Shown here: positions 2,093 through 21,232 of the stretch, in pieces | How the letters are laid out: each line of letters starts with the position of its first letter | How positions within the stretch are numbered: position 1 is the first letter of the stretch | UHGV virus genome: UHGV-0038965 | Length of the DNA: 27,823 nt | Source: a virus | Reading direction: 5' to 3' (one strand) | The notes under the pieces: model-generated | What the model was told of the DNA's origin: nothing | The model's database searches: none | The model's input: the letters and a program-made list of their open reading frames with translations, nothing else | Position numbers and translations under genes: made by a program

Positions 2093-2890
2093 TTATAGCT
2101 CCTTTAATCGAGGCGGTTCTGGTAGAGGCATCCAGTGGGTTACACCGCCAATTGGCTCATCGTCGTCGTACTCCAATGCGGCTATATAGAACCCGTCACG
2201 ACGAGAATAAGAAATCCCGGACATTACAATGCCATCCGAAACAACAATAATGTCACCCGTTTCTTTCGGCATTCGCTCACTACAGCTTATCCAACCATCC
2301 GGAGTCACCGGAAGCGAGAACGGCAGCACATCTCTGTGAACAAGTTTTTGCTGTGACAGGTTATCCAGAACTTTCTGTACTGCTGCATCACCGAATACAC
2401 CAAGCGCATCTGCCATAACTCCTACAACCTGATAAGCCTCAGCGCATACCGTGGATAAACCATCCGGAATTACCGGAGAGTTGCCGGGTTCTTTAATGTG
2501 CAAGCGAGGCTCACCATCTTTTGGTTCAGGCCACTGGCGCTCCATGTTGATCTTCAATTTATCTTCCATAGCAGCGGTAATTTCAGCATCGCTGATGCCA
2601 GCACGGCGCTGTGCATCCCACAACAGGAAATGCATATCAGCCCACTCGCTGAGATCGTCTGGTTCGGCTGCGGCTTCCAGAGCCTCTTTTGAGAGGTGTT
2701 TCAGTGGACCAATGGGGCCAACGCAGCCAAATGTGGAGTCAGACCATTTGGCATGCTCGTGGCGAATCAGTTCGCGTTCCAGTGATGCCAGTGCAATTCG
2801 TGCCAGTTCCATTTGTTCGCCACGAGTAAGCCCGTTTTCAAGCGGATTTTTAATGAACAATTCAATACGTTCTTTGGTAATAGTGGTCAT
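2093..2890 (-). CDS. Hypothetical modular early protein (265 aa) with a C-terminal DUF551-like segment
   Basis: Long ORF with good coding character. The C-terminal GVTHWMPLPEPP segment is typical of the prophage DUF551 family. Its N-terminus (MTTITK...RIALASLE) and an NSPVIPDG segment recur in the product of 12884-13690. Confidence 0.6.
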   Translation of the reverse strand: MTTITKERIELFIKNPLENGLTRGEQMELARIALASLERELIRHEHAKWSDSTFGCVGPIGPLKHLSKEALEAAAEPDDLSEWADMHFLLWDAQRRAGISDAEITAAMEDKLKINMERQWPEPKDGEPRLHIKEPGNSPVIPDGLSTVCAEAYQVVGVMADALGVFGDAAVQKVLDNLSQQKLVHRDVLPFSLPVTPDGWISCSERMPKETGDIIVVSDGIVMSGISYSRRDGFYIAALEYDDDEPIGGVTHWMPLPEPPRLKEL

Positions 2891-2900
2891 TTGTTAGTCC

Positions 2901-3656
2901 TTAAACTGCTAGTTGCAATTGCATTTCAAAGCGGTCGCGTTGTTCACAATACGCAAGAGAACCAGGGCTATTGTGTGCCTCAATCCGTTCTACCATTAAT
3001 GCTGCGCGTGTCTCTTTACTTGCAGGTGCATAAGCCCCAGACCAGGCTTTATCAATACCGATGTTTCGAGCGACGTTCGTACTATCTGCGCTGGCTAAGG
3101 GTAATTTTGTGAATATCAGCGGATTTAACATGCGCAATCCATGTAGTTTCGTAACCGGCTGACCATGCCCATCAACAATGTGACGAATCAGGTCTTTCAT
3201 TCTGGCTACCGCAAGAGTTGGGCGCTTTACGTCATAGTCGCCACAACTACCGATAGCCACTCGCGGAAACTCATTGCACAAATGAATAAATCGCGCGTCA
3301 CTTTCATTCATGTGCCACACTGGAACGCCAGCTAGTTTTCCGTGAGGCCACTCATTCAGAAGCGCATCATTTTCCTCCTCTCCGCCATCAATAATATCCG
3401 GGATAATGGCAAAATCGAATCCTGGGTGATTCTTCCAGCGAGCAACAAACTCGTAGTAATCGCTCCAGTCGATTTTGTTTTTGCCAGCTGCTTTCCAGGC
3501 GGTGAATGCACCGTTGTCCAGCGCGAACGACTGACAGTATTCAGCCGCGAGATTGATCTGGCCTGAATGCGCAAAACTGATAAACGCATGTCGCCCTTTC
3601 CATGCTCTCATTGCGCACGTATCAGGAGTAATAGGCCCACCGTGGTAGTGAATCAT
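2901..3656 (-). CDS. Hypothetical protein (about 251 aa), function unknown
   Basis: ORF 2901-3698 in the track. The preferred start is the ATG at 3656 (MIHYHGGPITPD...), which is preceded by AGGAG and sits next to the stop of the upstream gene. Contains an acidic stretch, DFAIIPDIIDGGEEEND. No family recognised with confidence. Confidence 0.55.
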   Translation of the reverse strand: MIHYHGGPITPDTCAMRAWKGRHAFISFAHSGQINLAAEYCQSFALDNGAFTAWKAAGKNKIDWSDYYEFVARWKNHPGFDFAIIPDIIDGGEEENDALLNEWPHGKLAGVPVWHMNESDARFIHLCNEFPRVAIGSCGDYDVKRPTLAVARMKDLIRHIVDGHGQPVTKLHGLRMLNPLIFTKLPLASADSTNVARNIGIDKAWSGAYAPASKETRAALMVERIEAHNSPGSLAYCEQRDRFEMQLQLAV

Positions 3657-3657
3657 C

Positions 3658-4065
3658 TCACTCTCCTTTGATGCGAATGCCAGTAGCGCGGATTGCATCG
3701 ATGACTTCAGAAACTTTGTATGCCATTACCGTTTGGTAATCATCGTGAAAATCTGTTCGATGAAGCATGCTGCTACGTTCCGGGAGCAGTATTTCCCGCG
3801 CTTCCAGTTCTGCAATGCGCTTTTTTGCTGCTTCCAGTTCATCCAGTAATTCCAGCACGGTAGCCGGATTAGCCTTGGCAACAAAATCCCGGACTGGCTT
3901 ACAATCAATCTCCGCAATGGGTTGATACGATGTGTAGCCATGCTGTCTTGTATAACTACCGTGACGAATAACGAAAAAATCACCATTTATTTTTTTAGCC
4001 TGCCACTTATCTTCACCGGCTTTCTCTGCCGCTTCACGCAGTGCCTGAGAGTTAATTTCGCTCAC
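3658..4065 (-). CDS. Ea22-like protein (135 aa)
   Basis: N-terminus MSEINSQALREAAE and C-terminus GIRIKGE resemble lambda Ea22. Shares the motif ANPATVLELLDELEA with the product of 12474-12887. Confidence 0.7.
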   Translation of the reverse strand: MSEINSQALREAAEKAGEDKWQAKKINGDFFVIRHGSYTRQHGYTSYQPIAEIDCKPVRDFVAKANPATVLELLDELEAAKKRIAELEAREILLPERSSMLHRTDFHDDYQTVMAYKVSEVIDAIRATGIRIKGE

Positions 4066-4673: not shown

Positions 4674-5027
4674 TCATACCTGGTCTCTCTCATCTGCTTC
4701 TGCTTTCGCCACCATCATTTCCAGCTTTTGTGAAAGGGATGCGGCTAACGTGTGAAATTCTTCGTCTGTTTCTACTGGTATTGGCACAAACCTGACTCCA
4801 ATTTGAGCGAGGCTATGTGCCATCTCGATACTCGTTCTTAACTCAACGGGAGATGCTTTGTGCATACAGCCCCCCCATTTATTATTTATCTCCTCAGCCA
4901 GCCGCTGTGCTTTCAGGGGATTTCGGATTACAGAAAGGCCGGGAAATACCCAGCCTCGCTTTGTAACGGAGTAGACGAAAGTGATTGCGCCTACCCGGAT
5001 ATTATCGTGAGGATGCGTCATCGCCAT
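4674..5027 (-). CDS. Hypothetical protein (117 aa) in the lambda orf60a/orf63 position immediately downstream of exo
   Basis: Position directly after exo, overlapping the exo start region by 10 bp. May be a fusion of two small lambda-like ORFs; not verified. Confidence 0.45.
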
Positions 5028-5698
5028 TGCTCCCCAAATACAAAACCAATTTCAGCCAGTGCCTCGTCCATTTTTTCGATGAACTCCGGCACCATCTCGT
5101 CAAAACTCGCCATGTACTTTTCATTCCGCTCAATCACGACATAATGCAGGCCTTCACGCTTCATGCGCGGGTCATAGTTGGCAAAGTACCAGGCATCTTT
5201 TCGCGTCACCCACATGCTGTACTGCACCTGGGCCATGTAAGCCGATTTTATTGCCTCGAAACCACCGAGCCGGAATTTCATGAAATCCCGGGAGGTAAAC
5301 GGGCATTTCAGTTCAAGGCCGTTGCCGTCACTGCATAAACCATCGGGAGAGCAGGCGGTGCGCATATTTTCGTCGCGATAGATGATCGGGGATTCAGTAA
5401 TATTCACGCCGGAAGTGAATTCAAACAGGGTTCTGGCGTCGTTCTCGTACTGTTTTCCCCAGGCCAGCGCCTTAGCATTAACTTCCGGAGCCACACCGGT
5501 GCAAACCTCAGCCAGCAGGGTGTGGAAGTAGGACATTTTCATGTCAGGCCACTTCTTTCCTGAGCGGGGCTTTGCTATCACGTTGTGAACTTCTGAAGCG
5601 GTGATGACGCCGAGCCGTAATTTGTGCCATGCATCATCCCCCTGTTCGACAGCTCTCACGTCGATCCCGGTACGCTGCAGGATAATGTCCGGTGTCAT
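5018..5698 (-). CDS. exo: Lambda exonuclease (Red alpha), 226 aa
   Basis: Translation [65 protein letters not shown]... matches lambda Exo in sequence and length. Confidence 0.97.
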
Positions 5699-6480
5699 GC
5701 TGCCACCTTCTGCTCAGTGGCTTTCTGTTTCAGGAATCCAAGAGCTTTCACTGCTTCGGCCTGTGTCAGTTCTGACGATGCGCGAATGTCGCGGCGAAAT
5801 ATCTGGGAACAGAGCGGCAATAAGTCGTCATCCCATGTTTTATCCAGGGCGATCAGCAGAGTGTTAATCTCCTGCATGGTTTCATCGTTAACCGGAGTGA
5901 TGTCGCGTTCTGGCTGACGTTCTGCAGTGTATGCAGTATTTTCGACAATGCGCTCGGCTTCATCCTTGTCATAGATACCAGCAAATCCGAAGGCCAGACG
6001 GGCACACTGAATCATGGCTTTATGCCGTAACATCCGTTTGGGATGCGACTGCCACGGCCCCGTGATTTCTCTGCCTTCGCGAGTTTTGAATGGTTCGCGG
6101 CGGCATTCATCCATCCATTCGGTAACGCAGATCGGATGATTACGGTCCTTGCGGTAAATCCGGCATGTACATGATTCATTGTCCTGCTCAAAGTCCATGC
6201 CATCAAACTGCTGGTTTTCATTGATGATGCGGGACCAGCCATCAACGCCCACCACCGGAACGATGCCGTTCTGCTTATCAGGGAAGGCGTAAATTTCTTT
6301 CGTCCACGGATTAAGGCCGTACTGGTTGGCGACGATCAACAATGCGATGAACTGCGCATCGCTGGCATCACCTTTAAATGCCGTCTGACGAAGAGTGGTG
6401 ATCAGTTCCTGTGGGTCGACAGAATCCATGCCGACACGTTCAGCCAGCTTCCCAGCCAGCGTTGCGAGTGCAGTACTCAT
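5695..6480 (-). CDS. bet: Red beta single-strand annealing protein (Bet), 261 aa
   Basis: Translation [66 protein letters not shown]... matches lambda Bet. Overlaps exo by 4 bp. Confidence 0.97.
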
Positions 6481-10135: not shown

Positions 10136-11065
10136 ATGGCAAACACTGCTGAGATATTCAATTTTCCAGTGCCGGATGCGGCACAAAAGGAGCCGCGCGT
10201 GGCAGATCTCGATGATGGTTATACGCGCATTGCAAATGAGTTGCTGGAAGCTGTGATGCTGGCCGGATTAACACAGCACCAGCTTCTGGTCTTCCTGGCT
10301 GTCATGCGCAAAACATATGGCTTTAATAAAAAACTGGATTGGGTGAGCAACGAGCAACTTTCCGAGTTGACCGGGATATTGCCGCACAAGTGTTCTGCTG
10401 CAAAAAGTGTTCTGGTAAAGCGTGGGATTTTTATTCAGAGCGGGCGGAATATCGGCATTAATAATGTGGTCAGTGAATGGTCAACATTACCCGAATCAGG
10501 TAAGAAAAATAAAGTTTACCTGAAAGAGGTAAATTTACCTGAATCAGGTAAGAAAAGTTTACCCAAATCAGGTAAAGGCACTTACCCGAATCAGGTAAAC
10601 ACAAAAGACAAACTAACAAAAGACAATATAAAACCTTATTCGTCCGAGAATTCTGGCGAATACTCTGACCAGCCAGAAAACGACCTTCCTGTGGTGAAAC
10701 CGGATGCTGCGATTCAGAGCGGCAGCAAGTGGGGGACAGCAGAAGACCTGACCGCCGCAGAGTGGATGTTTGACATGGTGAAGACCATCGCGCCATCAGC
10801 CAGAAAACCGAATTTTGCAGGGTGGGCTAACGATATCCGCCTGATGCGTGAGCGTGACGGGCGTAACCACCGCGATATGTGTGTACTGTTCCGCTGGGCA
10901 TGCCAGGACAACTTCTGGTCCGGTAACGTGCTGAGTCCGGCCAAACTCCGCGACAAGTGGACCCAGCTCGAAATCAACCGAAACAAGCAACAGGCTGGCG
11001 TGACAGCCGGCAAACCAAAACTCGACCTGACGAACACTGACTGGATTTACGGGGTGGATTTATGA
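10136..11065 (+). CDS. O: Replication initiator O (the ORF is open from 10046; the preferred start is 10136, MANTAEIFNF...)
   Basis: RVADLDDGYTRIANELLEA and LAVMRKTYGFNKK match the lambda O N-terminal DNA-binding domain. GGGAGG precedes the ATG at 10136. Contains the ori iterons. The C-terminal domain precedes P as in lambda. Confidence 0.9.
   Translation: MANTAEIFNFPVPDAAQKEPRVADLDDGYTRIANELLEAVMLAGLTQHQLLVFLAVMRKTYGFNKKLDWVSNEQLSELTGILPHKCSAAKSVLVKRGIFIQSGRNIGINNVVSEWSTLPESGKKNKVYLKEVNLPESGKKSLPKSGKGTYPNQVNTKDKLTKDNIKPYSSENSGEYSDQPENDLPVVKPDAAIQSGSKWGTAEDLTAAEWMFDMVKTIAPSARKPNFAGWANDIRLMRERDGRNHRDMCVLFRWACQDNFWSGNVLSPAKLRDKWTQLEINRNKQQAGVTAGKPKLDLTNTDWIYGVDL
10488..10600 (+). repeat. ori: Origin of replication: five iterons (consensus about TTACCYRAATCAGGTAAR) followed by an A/T-rich segment extending to about 10640
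   Basis: tacccgaatcaggtaag / ttacctgaaagaggtaaa / ttacctgaatcaggtaag / ttacccaaatcaggtaaag / cttacccgaatcaggtaaac, then acacaaaagacaaactaacaaaagacaatataaaacc. They lie inside the O reading frame and are translated as LPESGKK repeats. Confidence 0.85.
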
Positions 11066-12053: not shown

Positions 12054-12250
12054 GCATGATGGATTTCGCAGAAACTAAAAAGGCTATCGACGCCATCACA
12101 ACCGACTGGTCTATCCGAGGACCGTATCACGAAGACGACGGGAAATATTACGCCTTGCTTCGTGGAGAGTGGGTTGGTGGCGGGTATATCGGAAAACGGA
12201 AAGCCCTTGATGCCATTCTCGAAAAGTTAATCCAGGAGGCCGCCCAATGA
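12050..12250 (+). CDS. Hypothetical nin-region protein (about 66 aa)
   Basis: The ATG overlaps the ren stop (ATGA) and follows a G-rich SD. The track lists a longer ORF from 11993 that overlaps ren. Confidence 0.5.
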   Translation: MSMMDFAETKKAIDAITTDWSIRGPYHEDDGKYYALLRGEWVGGGYIGKRKALDAILEKLIQEAAQ

Positions 12251-12477
12251 GCAACATCGACAAACCAATGACAAACCGTGAACTGGTGGATGCCGCCATT
12301 GAATTGGCCGGAGAGTTTTATGCGATGCAGGGCTATTCGCATCGTCCTGGCTTCAAGTATTGGCAATCTCCGCACCCGCATGAGCGCCTGTGCTTTGAAA
12401 TGGCTTGCGTGGCATTCGAAACCATTCGCGGCTCAGATGTAATGGACGCCGTATCTGAGTTGGAGGATGAAGAATGA
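12247..12477 (+). CDS. Hypothetical nin-region protein (76 aa)
   Basis: ORF translationally coupled to its neighbours by 4-bp overlaps. Confidence 0.55.
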   Translation: MSNIDKPMTNRELVDAAIELAGEFYAMQGYSHRPGFKYWQSPHPHERLCFEMACVAFETIRGSDVMDAVSELEDEE

Positions 12478-12887
12478 GCAACATCGACAAACGCGCATTA
12501 CGTGAAATCGCTGAGGCAGCAGTTGGTGCGCATGAGCGCCTTAGTGTTATGCCGCCTGATGACATTTTCGATATCTCACTGGCAGAAGGAACTCAGCTTG
12601 ATGCAGATATCACTGCCTTGAACGCGCTGAACTCCGCAGCCAACCCAGCCACAGTGCTGGCGCTGCTGGATGAGCTGGAAGCCAAAGACCAGAGGATTGC
12701 TGTGCTGACCGAATCGCTCAAGCAGACGGTTTCAGGATACAAATCCTGCCTGCGTACCGGACATGAGCGCATTCTTGACCTTGGCGGTGACTGTGACGCG
12801 CCAGAAGTGATGATTGCAGGCAATCCTGACATTCAGCAGGCGCAGAAGCTGATCGCCGCCGCATCCGGTAAAGGAGAGGCATCATGA
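12474..12887 (+). CDS. Ea22-like protein (137 aa)
   Basis: The MSNIDKRALREIAEAA N-terminus and the ANPATVLALLDELEA motif are shared with the Ea22-like protein encoded at 3658-4065. Confidence 0.65.
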   Translation: MSNIDKRALREIAEAAVGAHERLSVMPPDDIFDISLAEGTQLDADITALNALNSAANPATVLALLDELEAKDQRIAVLTESLKQTVSGYKSCLRTGHERILDLGGDCDAPEVMIAGNPDIQQAQKLIAAASGKGEAS

Positions 12888-13690
12888 GCACTATTACCAA
12901 ACAATGGCTGCAGCAGAAAATTGCCGACATGGAAGCAGCCAGAGATGAAATCCCGTTCGGTCTGGACGAAGGCGACAGCAACACGCTGGCGGCACTGCGT
13001 ATCGCGCTGGCATCGCTCGAAGCGGAGCCTGCCATTCACCGGTGGCGTCGTGTGACCTCTGAGCCATACGGCCCCTATCCTTGGCATTATGGTGATTTTA
13101 TCGGCTTCTCAAAGCCCGTTGATGGGATTGAGGATGAGTATTTTTACTCCGCCCCGCCAGAGCCAGCCAATGCCGAAACCGTAGCCTGGCTGTGGTCACA
13201 CAGGAAACACCCGAGCGAAGTCACGCTTGTTCGCCCTGAAGATGATGAGAGAGCGGAGGGTGCTCACTGGTCTGGCTGGAGTTGTCAGGCGCTTTATGCA
13301 GCACCGCCAGTTCCGGTATCTGTGCCCACATTCGAGAAATGGTGTGAGTTGACTGAGCAGAAACCTGTCGGATGGGTGCGTGATGCTATGAAAGAAGCGT
13401 ATGACGGATGCCGCGACGCCATGCTTCAGGGTGCCGAAAAAGCCGAGTCGCCCACCACCATGCAGACCGCGCCAGCCCTAGATTCTTCGCCAAAAATTTC
13501 CGAGTCGCCCGTCAGCAACTCTCCGGTGATTCCGGATGGTTGGGTGCTGGTTCCTAAGGAGCCAACTCCAGAAATGCGTGAGGCGTACCATCAGGCGCAG
13601 GAAGAGTGTGAAGATGGCGGTAGATTATGGAGCCCAGACCACCAATGGAAGGCCATGATCGCAGCAGCACCGCAGCAGGAGGCGAAGTGA
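12884..13690 (+). CDS. Hypothetical modular protein (268 aa), paralogous at its N-terminus to the product of 2093-2890
   Basis: MSTITKQWL...LAALRIALASLEAE and NSPVIPDGW are shared with the early-left 265-aa protein; the C-terminal region is unrelated. Confidence 0.6.
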   Translation: MSTITKQWLQQKIADMEAARDEIPFGLDEGDSNTLAALRIALASLEAEPAIHRWRRVTSEPYGPYPWHYGDFIGFSKPVDGIEDEYFYSAPPEPANAETVAWLWSHRKHPSEVTLVRPEDDERAEGAHWSGWSCQALYAAPPVPVSVPTFEKWCELTEQKPVGWVRDAMKEAYDGCRDAMLQGAEKAESPTTMQTAPALDSSPKISESPVSNSPVIPDGWVLVPKEPTPEMREAYHQAQEECEDGGRLWSPDHQWKAMIAAAPQQEAK

Positions 13691-13740
13691 TTATGTCGTG
13701 ACAGCATAATTGCGATGTCAACGATAAGCAGAGGTTTGAA

Positions 13741-13936
13741 AATGAAATCACAATCACCAGTGCAGCATGAAGTTAACATCGACGGCAAAGAGTATGTTGT
13801 CACAGTAGTCCAAACCGGCAAGTCAACGTGGAGGGCATGGGGAGATTCCTGGGGGCGCCATATAGTCGAAACAGGTTCTAGCGAACATAGCGCGCTTTCT
13901 CATTGGAAAGCAAAAGCTTTAGTTATGAATGGGTAG
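13741..13936 (+). CDS. Hypothetical small protein (about 65 aa; the ORF is open from 13715)
   Basis: SD GAGGT precedes the ATG at 13741. Confidence 0.45.
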
Positions 13937-13959
13937 CGCGGAAACTTTGAAGGTATAAT

Positions 13960-13985
13960 CCCCTCAAATAATCGAGGGGGTTTTT
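13960..13985 (+). terminator. Hairpin plus T-run immediately upstream of the moron ATG
   Basis: cccctc-aaataatc-gaggggg-ttttt, directly followed by the ATG at 13986. The 3' arm may double as the SD. Confidence 0.5.
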
Positions 13986-14495
13986 ATGTCTGGTTGGGAT
14001 AACGGTATAGATGCAGTTTCTGCGATTGCAGCTATCGCATCTGCGGTAGCAACTTATTTAGCATGGCGATCCTCAGAAGCTAGCAGGGCCACATCCGAAA
14101 AAGCTTTGCAGTTGCAAGGAAAGCAGTATTTGTACGAGACATTAAAAGCTTGCGCTGAGAGAGCGAATTCATACTCAAAAGGAAAGAAAGGGGCTGACTG
14201 GAGCTTTCATGACGCAGCCAATATTGTTCGATGTTTGAACATGGCAATGGGGAGCATAATAAATTACTCAGATACCAACAATCAGGATGCAATGAAAGGT
14301 CTGAAGCAATTCTTTATTAGCCAATTAAACATGGAGCTTTTTGAAGAGCTCAACTATGAGGTTGGGCCTGATGCCTTCTTTCACGGAGAGGAGCTAACCA
14401 GCATGACGAGCGATATTTACTCGCAGTGGTTAAACATTATTTCATTCTTTAACCTCATGATTGTCACAGATGATGACCTCGCCGATGAAACATAG
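13986..14495 (+). CDS. Hypothetical membrane-anchored protein (169 aa), moron
   Basis: N-terminal hydrophobic helix (IDAVSAIAAIASAVATYLAW) followed by a soluble domain. Markedly AT-rich relative to flanking nin genes. Bracketed by hairpins, with TATAAT at 13953-13958. Confidence 0.65.
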   Translation: MSGWDNGIDAVSAIAAIASAVATYLAWRSSEASRATSEKALQLQGKQYLYETLKACAERANSYSKGKKGADWSFHDAANIVRCLNMAMGSIINYSDTNNQDAMKGLKQFFISQLNMELFEELNYEVGPDAFFHGEELTSMTSDIYSQWLNIISFFNLMIVTDDDLADET

Positions 14496-16808: not shown

Positions 16809-17891
16809 TTAGAACTGGTAAACCATACCTACAGCAACGATATCATCGGTAGCAACGCCAGATGCTTTCGTGAAATCGCTCTTATCAATCAGGTTGATTT
16901 TGTAGTCAACAAAAGTGGACATATTTTTGTTGAAGTAATAGGTTGCACCTACATCAACATATTCAACCAGGTCCTGATCACCCCAAACACCCAAGTCTTT
17001 TCCTTTAGAATGCAGGTAAGCAACGGATGGACGCAGGCCGAAGTCGAACTGATATTGTGCAACAGCTTCGAAGTTTTGTGCTTTGTTGGCAATATGGTTA
17101 TTACCAAAAACAGTCATGTTCTGGGTTTCAGAATAGGTGGTGGCCAGATAGATGTTGTTCGCATCATATTTCAGACCAGCTGCCCATACTTCAGCATTTT
17201 GACCAGAAGCATTCAGACCGTTGTTACCGTAGATAACCTGATTATTAGTGCGATCAGATTTAGCATAGGTTGCACCCACGCCGAATCCTTCATACTCATA
17301 AGTAGTTGAGAAACCGAAACCATCGCCATTAGCTTCAGTTACTTCATTTCGGTCATTTTTGCCCTGATACTGAGCTGCAAAGTTCAGGCCATCAACCAGA
17401 CCAAAGAAGTCGTTGTTACGATAAGTTGCAACACCTGTGGTGCGACCAGTCATGAATACATCTGTTTGGGTCCAGGTATCGCCACCGAATTCTGGCAGAA
17501 CGTCAGTCCACGCACCGATGTCGTATGCTACACCGTAGTTACGGCCGTAATCGATTGAGCCGTAGTCACCGAATTTCAGGCCTGCAAATGCAAGACGGGT
17601 TTTGTCTTTGGAGGAACCTTGAGATTCAGCGCGGTTGCCTTTGAATTCATATTCCCACTGACCGAAACCAGTCAGTTGATCGTTGATTTGGGTTTCACCT
17701 TTGAAGCCAAGACGGGCATAAGTAGTATCACCATCATCTGCATCATTAGAGGAGAAGTAGTGCTTAGCATTAACTTTCCCGTACAGATCCAGCTTGTTAC
17801 TGTCTTTATTATAAATTTCAGCTGCCTGAGCAGACATCGCCATCAGTACTGATGCAGCTACAGCAGAAATTGCCACTGTTAATTTTTTCAT
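16809..17891 (-). CDS. nmpC: Outer-membrane general porin of the OmpC/NmpC/Lc family (360 aa), lysogenic-conversion moron
   Basis: Signal peptide [23 protein letters not shown], a C-terminal ...VGMVYQF beta-barrel terminal motif, and overall similarity to enterobacterial porins. Lies opposite in orientation between Q and the lysis genes, as in DLP12 and PA-2. Confidence 0.92.
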
Positions 17892-19756: not shown

Positions 19757-21232
19757 TTGAAAGAATATTTAGATATGAATACATCTCATGTAAGAGTTGT
19801 TACTCATATGTGTGGGTTCCTGGTTTGGCTCTATAGTCTTTCAATGTTGCCACCAATGGTTGTAGCATTGTTTTATAAAGAAAAAAGCCTGTTCGTTTTC
19901 TTTATAACTTTCGTTATATTTTTTTGCATTGGTGGCGGAGCGTGGTATACAACTAAGAAATCTGGCATTCAATTACGTACCCGTGATGGGTTTATTATAA
20001 TTGTAATGTTTTGGATTTTGTTTTCTGTTATTAGTGCATTCCCTTTATGGATTGACTCAGAACTTAATTTAACGTTCATTGATGCTCTGTTTGAAGGGGT
20101 TTCTGGAATAACAACAACAGGAGCAACTGTAATTGATGATGTTAGTTCATTACCTCGGGCATATTTGTACTATCGGTCACAGTTAAATTTTATAGGTGGT
20201 TTAGGAGTTATTGTTCTGGCGGTTGCTGTATTGCCATTATTGGGTATTGGTGGTGCAAAGCTTTATCAGTCAGAAATGCCGGGGCCATTTAAGGATGACA
20301 AACTCACTCCCCGCCTGGCCGATACGTCACGGACACTGTGGATAACTTATTCTTTATTAGGTATTGCTTGTATTGTCTGTTATAGACTTGCAGGAATGCC
20401 TTTGTTTGATGCTATTTGTCACGGGATTTCCACAGTTTCGCTTGGTGGTTTCTCAACTCATAGCGAGAGTATCGGATATTTTAATAACTATTTGGTTGAG
20501 CTGGTGGCTGGTTCTTTTTCCCTGCTATCGGCTTTCAACTTCACTCTTTGGTATATTGTTATTAGCAGGAAAACGATAAAACCTTTAATCAGAGATATTG
20601 AACTTCGTTTCTTTCTGTTAATAGCCTTAGGGGTGATCATTGTTACCTCTTTCCAGGTCTGGCATATAGGTATGTATGACTTGCATGGAAGTTTTATTCA
20701 TTCGTTTTTTCTTGCCAGCTCCATGCTCACTGATAATGGTTTAGCTACGCAGGATTATGCAAGTTGGCCCACGCACACGATAGTGTTTTTGCTGTTGTCA
20801 AGTTTCTTTGGGGGATGTATAGGTTCAACTTGTGGTGGAATTAAGTCACTTCGATTTCTTATACTTTTCAAACAAAGCAAACACGAGATAAATCAGCTTT
20901 CTCATCCCAGAGCGTTGTTGAGTGTAAATGTAGGAGGGAAGATAGTTACAGATCGTGTAATGAGGTCTGTATGGAGTTTCTTTTTTCTTTATACTCTCTT
21001 CACGGTGTTTTTTATACTGGTGTTAAATGGTATGGGATATGATTTTCTTACATCATTTGCAACAGTGGCTGCATGTATTAATAATATGGGATTAGGTTTT
21101 GGGGCTACTGCATCGTCATTCGGAGTGCTTAATGACATTGCAAAATGTTTAATGTGCATAGCTATGATTCTTGGTCGCCTTGAAATTTATCCTGTTATTA
21201 TATTGTTTTCAGGTTTTTTTTGGCGCTCCTAA
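19757..21232 (+). CDS. trkG: TrkH/TrkG-family potassium uptake membrane protein (491 aa), moron
   Basis: Polytopic membrane protein with repeated GxG selectivity-filter-like segments (GITTTGATV, GIGGAK, GGFSTH, GSTCGGIK). Strongly AT-rich. Lies after Rz, where the Rac prophage has trkG. Confidence 0.85.
   Translation: MKEYLDMNTSHVRVVTHMCGFLVWLYSLSMLPPMVVALFYKEKSLFVFFITFVIFFCIGGGAWYTTKKSGIQLRTRDGFIIIVMFWILFSVISAFPLWIDSELNLTFIDALFEGVSGITTTGATVIDDVSSLPRAYLYYRSQLNFIGGLGVIVLAVAVLPLLGIGGAKLYQSEMPGPFKDDKLTPRLADTSRTLWITYSLLGIACIVCYRLAGMPLFDAICHGISTVSLGGFSTHSESIGYFNNYLVELVAGSFSLLSAFNFTLWYIVISRKTIKPLIRDIELRFFLLIALGVIIVTSFQVWHIGMYDLHGSFIHSFFLASSMLTDNGLATQDYASWPTHTIVFLLLSSFFGGCIGSTCGGIKSLRFLILFKQSKHEINQLSHPRALLSVNVGGKIVTDRVMRSVWSFFFLYTLFTVFFILVLNGMGYDFLTSFATVAACINNMGLGFGATASSFGVLNDIAKCLMCIAMILGRLEIYPVIILFSGFFWRS

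Follow-up and report, generated by a model that had tools for sequence, protein, structure and literature searches.

Ea22-like and EaA-like genes on the two arms of a lambdoid prophage: probable old mosaic paralogues built around short universal joints

The stretch of DNA analysed here, the 27,823-nucleotide (nt) virus genome UHGV-0038965 (hereafter the window), is a lambdoid prophage, and each of its two early arms carries one gene of the Ead/Ea22-like family followed downstream by one EaA-like gene. Gene order was read from the PGAP annotation of the matching prophage of Escherichia coli QDFD216, to which the window is 100% identical along its first 14.5 kb; two further strains match this part at ~100%. 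The QDFD216 prophage occupies the lambda attachment site and is flanked by ybhC and ybhB/bioA. The minus strand reads int, xis, accessory genes, exo, bet, gam, a kil-like gene and the repressor, after which the plus strand continues with cro-like and cII-like genes, O, P, accessory genes, ybcN, ninE, rusA and Q. The left pair, on the pL side between exo and xis, encloses a TGT/DpdA-like gene; the right pair is found on the pR side between P and the nin genes (Table 1). A preliminary description of the window had reported that the two pairs resemble each other across opposite strands and opposite arms, a placement that the annotation bears out, and had proposed that they could be substrates for inversion-type recombination or domain shuffling. 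We consider that the four are ordinary, non-essential lambdoid early genes belonging to two known mosaic families, whose cassettes lie between short universal sequences (joints) and are exchanged at these joints; we put the probability of this reading at roughly 0.8.

Table 1. Genes, joints and signals of the two prophage arms (positions in the window).
Feature	Position	Strand	Support or counterpart
Right-arm Ead/Ea22-like gene, 137 amino acids (aa)	12474..12887	+	PF13935 E 5.5e-24; PGAP 'ead/Ea22-like family protein'
Left-arm Ead/Ea22-like gene, 135 aa, GTG start, position of lambda ea22 (exo-xis)	3658..4065	-	PF13935 E 2.6e-17; phrog_1667 E 1.7e-56
Right-arm EaA-like / phi80 gp64-like mosaic gene, 268 aa	12884..13690	+	phrog_60 E 3.2e-26; phi80 gp64 31% over full length
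Left-arm EaA-like gene, 265 aa	2093..2890	-	PF04447 E 1.1e-41; PF04448 E 7.3e-14
Ea22 joint ANPATVLALLDELEAKD, start of long helix	12636..12686	+	left counterpart 3829-3873(-)
AAAGGAGAG, K-G-E codons of the Ea22-like end and Shine-Dalgarno sequence for the gene at 12884	12870..12878	+	left counterpart 3661-3669(-), ATG 3654-3656
Start joint ATGAGCACTATTACCAAA (MSTITK)	12884..12904	+	left counterpart 2870-2890(-)
ALASLEAE joint	13001..13027	+	left counterpart 2771-2797(-)
NSPVIPDGW joint	13515..13541	+	left counterparts 2458-2484(-), 2291-2312(-)
76-aa open reading frame with MSNIDK start joint and upstream Shine-Dalgarno sequence	12247..12477	+	direct repeat; phrog_4132, C-terminal half only
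TGT/DpdA-like gene, between the two left-arm genes	2901..3656	-	phrog_887 'queuine tRNA-ribosyltransferase', E 5.8e-102
exo and bet (Red recombination genes)	5018..6480	-	PGAP 'lambda exonuclease family protein', 'phage recombination protein Bet'

Both Ea22-like proteins scored above the gathering score of 27 for the PF13935 (Ead_Ea22) domain, with 85.7 bits for the right and 64.1 bits for the left copy. BLASTP aligned 34 identical residues over 88 (39%, E 2e-10), and the alignment includes the strings MS-I---ALRE-AE and ANPATVL-LLDELEA from which the resemblance had originally been read. The left protein and lambda Ea22 are identical in their N-terminus, MSEINSQALREAAE, and in their end, GIRIKGE (E 1e-8). 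A C-terminal K/R-G-E motif is present in both window copies (...GKGEAS in the right and ...IKGE in the left). The right gene starts within an ATGA that overlaps the preceding open reading frame (ORF), and its final codons hold the Shine-Dalgarno (SD) sequence of the next gene. It lies after P in the pR operon, outside the exo-xis location occupied by the left copy; this location is a trait of lambda ea22 and not of the Pfam family. The 99%-identity cluster of the 137-aa protein was present on 601 contigs.

An alignment of the Ea22-like family displayed the following layout: MSNIDKxALREAAEKA, a cassette, AANPATVLALLDELEAKDxRIAEL, at least one further cassette, and AAGKGE, with the variable stretch beginning past the LLDELEAKD joint. 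The AlphaFold2 (AF2) model of the 137-aa protein is all-helical (predicted local distance difference test, pLDDT, 80), with helices at residues 6-24 and 41-55 and a helix of 45 residues (58-102) that starts at the NPATVL joint; a Foldseek search of this model against BFVD returned only E values above 1. Ea22 has been described as a mosaic family forming a tetramer, in which an N-terminal segment and a coiled coil make up a common scaffold for variable C-terminal ends (PMC10834534), and Ea22 of lambda and of Stx phages favours lysogeny (PMC7093339). The model, with its long helix from the NPATVL joint, fits the published scaffold. The Ea22-like proteins are likely to be helical coiled-coil oligomers displaying variable C-terminal ends, and for this pair the earlier suggestion of a shared N-terminal module is upheld by the scaffold and by helix 58-102 of the model.

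For the EaA-like pair, BLASTP aligned the N-termini with 25 of 68 residues identical (E 4e-5) and the NSPVIPDG segment with E 2e-3. Both proteins share the MxTITK start and the ARIALASLE string, and both N-termini match phrog_60, phrog_3323 and phrog_660. The wording of the second shared segment needs correction, however, since the left copy reads NSPVIPDG followed by L, and the Trp is found there in a separate PVTPDGW. The right protein is ordered as start joint, cassette, ALASLEAEP joint, cassettes, AMLQG joint, linker, NSPVIPDGW joint, PTPEM-type C-terminal module and AAAPQQE end. The order in the left protein is start joint, cassette, ALASLERE joint, DUF550, NSPVIPDG joint, spacer, PVTPDGW joint and DUF551. 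The left copy matched PF04447 (dATP/dGTP pyrophosphohydrolase, DUF550) at residues 42-137 with 141.4 bits against a cut-off of 23, and PF04448 (DUF551) at residues 199-260 with 52.8 bits against a cut-off of 22; PDGW forms the first part of the latter match. The right protein matched neither PF04447 nor PF04448 nor any other Pfam domain; the C-termini differ, as had been stated. NCBIfam and PADLOC gave no matches for any of the proteins.

It is worth noting how widely these proteins are distributed. The exact 265-aa left protein was present in at least 1000 contigs, under the name 'DUF550 domain-containing protein', and the exact 268-aa right protein in 448. With the latter as query, more than 4,413 relatives were significant; they measured 148-407 aa, and some had DUF551, DUF550 or Ead_Ea22. 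In a tblastn search of phage genomes, the MxTITK proteins matched P22-like phage genes that carry the annotation EaA. As judged from sequence, the second family is best described as P22 EaA-like, taking in DUF550/DUF551 and phi80 gp64-type proteins. Enterobacterial prophages very commonly encode EaA-like, DUF551 and nin-side Ea22-like proteins. Of 22 loci of other Enterobacteriaceae that a degenerate peptide pattern retrieved, at least 14 place the EaA-like gene on the right arm, with O/P on one side of it and ybcN on the other, and an MSNIDK Ea22-like gene often comes before it; in one locus the gene lies on the int side. Both arms are thus usual homes of both families, and the presence of a pair on each arm is unremarkable.

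As to function, the left EaA-like protein is likely a MazG-type dATP/dGTP pyrophosphohydrolase fused to DUF551, the activity being taken from the DUF550 family name only, while the right protein, without an enzymatic domain, probably acts as a binder or adaptor. PDB sequence searches returned nothing below E 0.1, and no solved relative of the DUF550 protein was found. A literature search on EaA mosaicism yielded gene lists only, with no EaA role reported where the gene was listed; a DUF551 protein, YfdS, has been linked to oxidative-stress resistance (PMC10834534). The TGT/DpdA-like gene had no match in Pfam or NCBIfam. It is no paralogue of its neighbours but belongs to the conserved left-arm cassette, and a link of the DUF550 gene and this TGT-like neighbour to 7-deazaguanine-type DNA modification is possible.

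The left EaA-like gene is one continuous ORF, although PGAP divides it into a 40-codon 'pseudogene fragment' (2771-2890) and a coding sequence in the same frame (2093-2713), a split that cuts into DUF550; start calls giving 232, 234 and 265 aa stand side by side in the databases. The end of the fragment coincides with the end of the ALASLERE joint and, because it stops exactly there, the split is judged an artefact of mosaicism. Joints inside genes hence explain why automatic annotation breaks such ORFs into a 'pseudogene' and a short coding sequence.

The two arms share three inverted repeats, all of them in frame: 26 of 27 nt are identical between 2458-2484 and 13515-13541 at NSPVIPDG, 22 nt match at 95% between 2291-2312 and 13522-13543 at PVTPDGW, and 21 nt match at 90% between 2870-2890 and 12884-12904 at the start codons. 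By simple arithmetic, a 26/27 match between two genes of 800 nt is expected by chance ~3e-9 times. Outside these islands the DNA of the pairs aligned no better than chance. Because the arms are alike in DNA only within islands of 21-27 nt, both the Ea22-like and the EaA-like pair are old paralogues and not recent duplicates, and the recent gene conversion or duplication that had been raised finds no support in the protein and DNA alignments.

A related proposal holds that the pairs are recent intra-prophage duplicates or have been homogenised by gene conversion, and that the repeats serve to invert the early region or to swap C-terminal ends. In-frame inverted repeats of 27, 22 and 21 nt do connect the arms, and a crossover at the 27-nt joint would yield two intact chimeric ORFs. 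Nevertheless, we regard this proposal as very improbable, given the background level of DNA identity outside the islands. Neither of the predicted reciprocal chimeras was present in 5,426 complete E. coli genomes, in which no place (0) covered at least 80% of either query, and the same 14.5-kb arrangement recurs at ~100% identity in three genomes. Moreover, repeats of 21-27 nt do not exceed the minimum length commonly given for efficient recombination by RecA. What the E. coli genomes did contain were partial matches of two kinds. In one set the match opens at the 27-nt joint and extends into the left-type 3' part, with other 5' partners ahead of it; the other set runs from the DUF550 part through the joint into the right-type VxVPxExTPEM module. 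The latter architecture is that of E. coli E-93, where a left-type N-terminus and DUF550 are joined at the joint to the right-type PTPEM module. Because of these partial matches and the E-93 architecture, modules appear to recombine at the 27-nt joint in the population, and not by inversion within this prophage.

When the 42 relatives that matched the whole 268-aa query were aligned, short near-invariant strings alternated with unrelated sequence. The strings were the MSTITK start, ARIALASLEAEP, YSAPPAP..EPVAW, ALYAAPPAP, RAAMLQGA, GNSPVIPDGW and the AAAPQQEVK end. At the N-terminus, a 6-aa start joint and a 9-11-aa ARIALASLEAE joint enclose 20-40 hypervariable residues, with 76 distinct cassette versions among 100 homologues and different versions in the left and right copies. 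The shared N-terminal module proposed for the EaA-like pair is hence two joints around a hypervariable cassette and not one common domain. The same 18 nt of the MSTITK joint head 16 genes in other genomes with unrelated flanks. Likewise, two neighbouring genes of the window that are not otherwise related begin alike, with a direct repeat of 31 nt (84%; 12235-12265/12462-12492) that takes in the ribosome-binding site and the six opening codons (MSNIDK) of each, and the MSNIDK joint heads some EaA-like proteins too.

Overall, the joints were DNA islands of 18-30 nt with identities of 0.82-1.0 against 0.25-0.45 in the flanks, as measured on loci retrieved irrespective of codon choice. The DNA of the ALASLEAE joint was near-identical in 24 loci found with a degenerate peptide pattern (0.82-0.93 vs 0.25-0.48 in the flanks). 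The exact 24-nt NSPVIPDGW joint occurred in at least 120 IMG/VR contigs, where 27 left and 40 right flank types made up 79 combinations, and upstream of it identity dropped to 0.30 within ~10 nt. Cassette types in different slots were associated no more strongly than in shuffles, with 37 combinations among 45 proteins. A small palindrome, TCCGG-N5-CCGGA, lies in the NSPVIPDGW joint at 2463-2477 (-) and 13522-13536 (+), and was read as a hairpin by the terminator scan.

The joints also mark where homology breaks. E. coli matches to 12200-13760 started or stopped at the gene starts 12473-12475 and 12867-12869, at the edges of the LLDELEAKD joint (12634 and 12683-12707) and of the ALASLEAEP joint (12997 and 13029-13031), at the AMLQG joint (13438) and at the PDGW joint (13514). 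Matches of 49-69 nt were limited to the Ea22 joint stretch (query 435-503, that is, window 12634-12702); as megablast needs an exact word of 28 nt, 100% identity in short joint-only matches does not show special conservation. The genes form operon-like chains with overlapping stops and starts, both families are combinatorial mosaics, and the joints are their sole universal homology. The proteins are modular, as suspected from the beginning, and domain shuffling is massive at the population level, as evidenced by the alignments, the flank combinations and the free assortment of cassettes; among the relatives, alternative C-terminal modules occur, such as the PTPEM module in E-93.

The shared strings could instead be functional protein elements, such as an N-terminus for oligomerisation or partner binding, or linkers, with the DNA identity incidental. 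The scaffold recognised in Ea22 (PMC10834534), the long AF2 helix beginning at the NPATVL joint and the position of PDGW at the opening of the DUF551 match would all suit such a role, as would the confident helical hairpin of residues 6-46 in the right EaA-like protein; the other confident element of that model is a C-terminal two-helix unit (229-260). We find this explanation doubtful. The EaA-like module consists of just 6 + 11 shared residues with 20-40 unrelated ones between them, the MSNIDK start joint is common to three unrelated kinds of protein, and codons at identical joint residues agreed at 0.82, compared with 0.33 expected from codon usage, an excess of synonymous identity that selection on the protein does not explain.

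Other joints are readily understood as expression signals. The right Ea22-like gene ends GGT AAA GGA GAG GCA TCA TGA, with the ATG of the next gene overlapping the stop, and the left one ends ATC AAA GGA GAG TGA G ATG, where the ATG begins the TGT-like gene. In other loci, nine of nine distinct Ea22-like ends carried the K-G-E codons AAAGGAGA(G/A), GGAG was followed by an ATG at a distance of 6-7 nt, and the downstream genes were unrelated. Lambda ea22 has kept the identical GGCATTCGCATCAAAGGAGAGTGAGAT with no ATG behind it, and would have lost the downstream start. The C-terminal '+GE' of Ea22 proteins was reported as a motif whose 'significance is unknown' (PMC7093339). Because the K-G-E codons precede an ATG at the same 6-7-nt spacing at all nine ends, '+GE' is most simply read as the SD sequence of a translationally coupled downstream gene. 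This small new idea supplies a simple answer, open to test, to a question that the literature had left standing.

It is possible, though not probable, that the joints are kept mainly as ribosome-binding sites, starts and devices of translational coupling, and not as recombination sites. Besides the nine Ea22-like ends, at which AAAGGAGAG is followed by an ATG at that spacing whatever gene comes next, the EaA-like end CAGCAGGAGG-N-TGA also includes GGAGG. The internal joints ALASLEAE, AMLQG and NSPVIPDGW, however, have no in-frame start after them and no evident expression role, yet homology breaks at them as well. An expression role hence complements cassette exchange at the terminal joints and does not replace it.

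Extreme cassette diversity between fixed short sequences, together with the palindrome in the PDGW joint, might also bring to mind a programmed device, that is, a shufflon with its invertase, a diversity-generating retroelement or a homing element. This is extremely improbable. The prophage annotation lists an integrase and an excisionase and shows no invertase, reverse transcriptase or other dedicated recombinase, no inversion chimeras were found in the E. coli genomes, the joints differ from one another and stand in direct order within each gene, and the cassettes are unrelated and not mutated copies of a template. A shufflon or retroelement mechanism was rejected, its components being absent from that annotation. 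We also think it unlikely that the Ea22-like and EaA-like genes constitute a cassette-exchange diversification system, in which universal joints of ~25-35 nt, several of them doubling as ribosome-binding or start signals, are retained so that Red/Erf-type recombinases can reshuffle very small protein modules, whether the partners are prophages that share a cell or the two arms of a single phage; the combinatorial pattern is seen, and the selection only supposed. If it were true, early proteins directed at host targets or at defence systems would come in combinatorial variety, and the phage would have its own counterpart to the segmental gene conversion of antigenic variation.

In the reading that we prefer, that of ordinary lambdoid mosaicism, both families would consist of cassettes that can replace one another, with short universal joints of 18-35 nt between them that are reused in all combinations. 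The terminal joints would double as expression signals: the final codons of one gene serve as the ribosome-binding site of the gene that follows, and stops and starts overlap as ATGA. Homologous recombination between phage and prophage, by host RecA or by the phage's own Exo and Bet, would cross over in the joints, and such crossovers would reshuffle cassettes, whole genes and the arm that they occupy. Exo and Bet are candidate catalysts of exchange at such short homologies. The arms would resemble each other because both families reuse the same universal joints, so that the resemblance is a by-product of mosaicism, and neither a rearrangement device nor the trace of a recent duplication.

Several points weigh against this account. 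Recombination at the joints is read indirectly, from the free assortment of cassettes, and the cassette counts are biased because the homologue samples were ranked by similarity to the query. The joints may be kept partly for protein reasons, for example as helix ends or interdomain linkers. Selection on their DNA for recombination was not borne out by the codon control, in which codon identity was 0.75 in homologous cassettes and 0.79 in joints. The likely protein roles of all four genes are drawn from family knowledge. BLAST gave no similarity between the right Ea22-like protein and lambda Ea22 itself, and the AF2 model of the 268-aa protein (pLDDT 53) is confident only at residues 1-47 and 219-262; Foldseek with this poor model returned only E values above 1 against PDB. 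Special conservation of the joints at the DNA level was dropped as a candidate, homologous cassettes being nearly equal. Because of that control the joints are judged to be universal rather than specially conserved, although far above the expectation from codon usage, and their distinguishing property is that they are present in every combination. The finding is real but ordinary, a well-documented new instance of mosaicism that was already known; it provides a clean, quantified case of conserved boundary sequences working inside genes.

Beyond the right pair, a 73-aa ORF (13715-13936) had no family match, and a strong terminator-like hairpin of nine pairs and a T run was seen at 13957-13982 (+), adjoining the ATG of a 169-aa ORF at 13986 (phrog_1779). 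This places everything from P to 13936, the right pair included, upstream of a tR2-like terminator. Four to five iterons of 22-23 nt (TTACCYGAATCAGGTAA...) at 10487-10603 (+), inside the O-like replication gene, presumably form the replication origin. According to the QDFD216 annotation, an OmpC-like porin gene (16809-17891, -) and a trkG potassium transporter gene (19757-21232, +) are located near Q and the lysis genes, cargo like that of DLP12 and Rac; in the late region of QDFD216, IS1 interrupts the terminase gene.

The window genes can be compared with four known systems. With the lambda Ea22/P22 Ead family, the Ea22-like proteins share scores above the family threshold, the MSxIxxxALREAAE start, the central long helix and a variable C-terminus ending in K-G-E. 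The left copy occupies the exo-xis region as lambda ea22 does, and has the first 14 and last 7 residues of lambda Ea22. Unlike the lambda protein of 182 aa, the window copies have 135-137 aa and are without its solved C-terminal domain, and the right copy is a nin-side gene whose product BLAST does not relate to lambda Ea22. BTP1 EaA, of the P22 EaA type, likewise begins with MTTITK, and the DUF550 part of the left copy is 48% identical to it (E 2e-51). Salmonella phage BTP1 also has the same left order of ead/Ea22-like, queuine tRNA-ribosyltransferase-like and eaA genes (4065-3658, 3656-2901 and 2890-2093 in the window), an order (ead / TGT-like / eaA) that E. coli E-93 shares. However, BTP1 EaA has 321 aa, other inserts and a PTPEM-type end, whereas the left copy ends in DUF551. 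The right copy in turn is 31% identical to phi80 gp64 ('similar to N15 gp45') over 100% of its length (E 8e-20), with all joints and with the same position directly after a P-like replication gene; the middle cassettes AIHRWRR... and WLWSHRKH... of the right copy are missing from gp64.

Finally, the pattern agrees with the conserved boundary-sequence model of lambdoid mosaicism (Clark 2001; Susskind and Botstein 1978), as these works are cited in PMC3029335. Both involve short stretches of conserved DNA at module junctions, unrelated flanks and coincident breakpoints of homology. The window genes differ in that many of the joints lie inside coding sequence, one every 30-100 codons, so that it is single proteins, and not gene sets only, that are reassorted.

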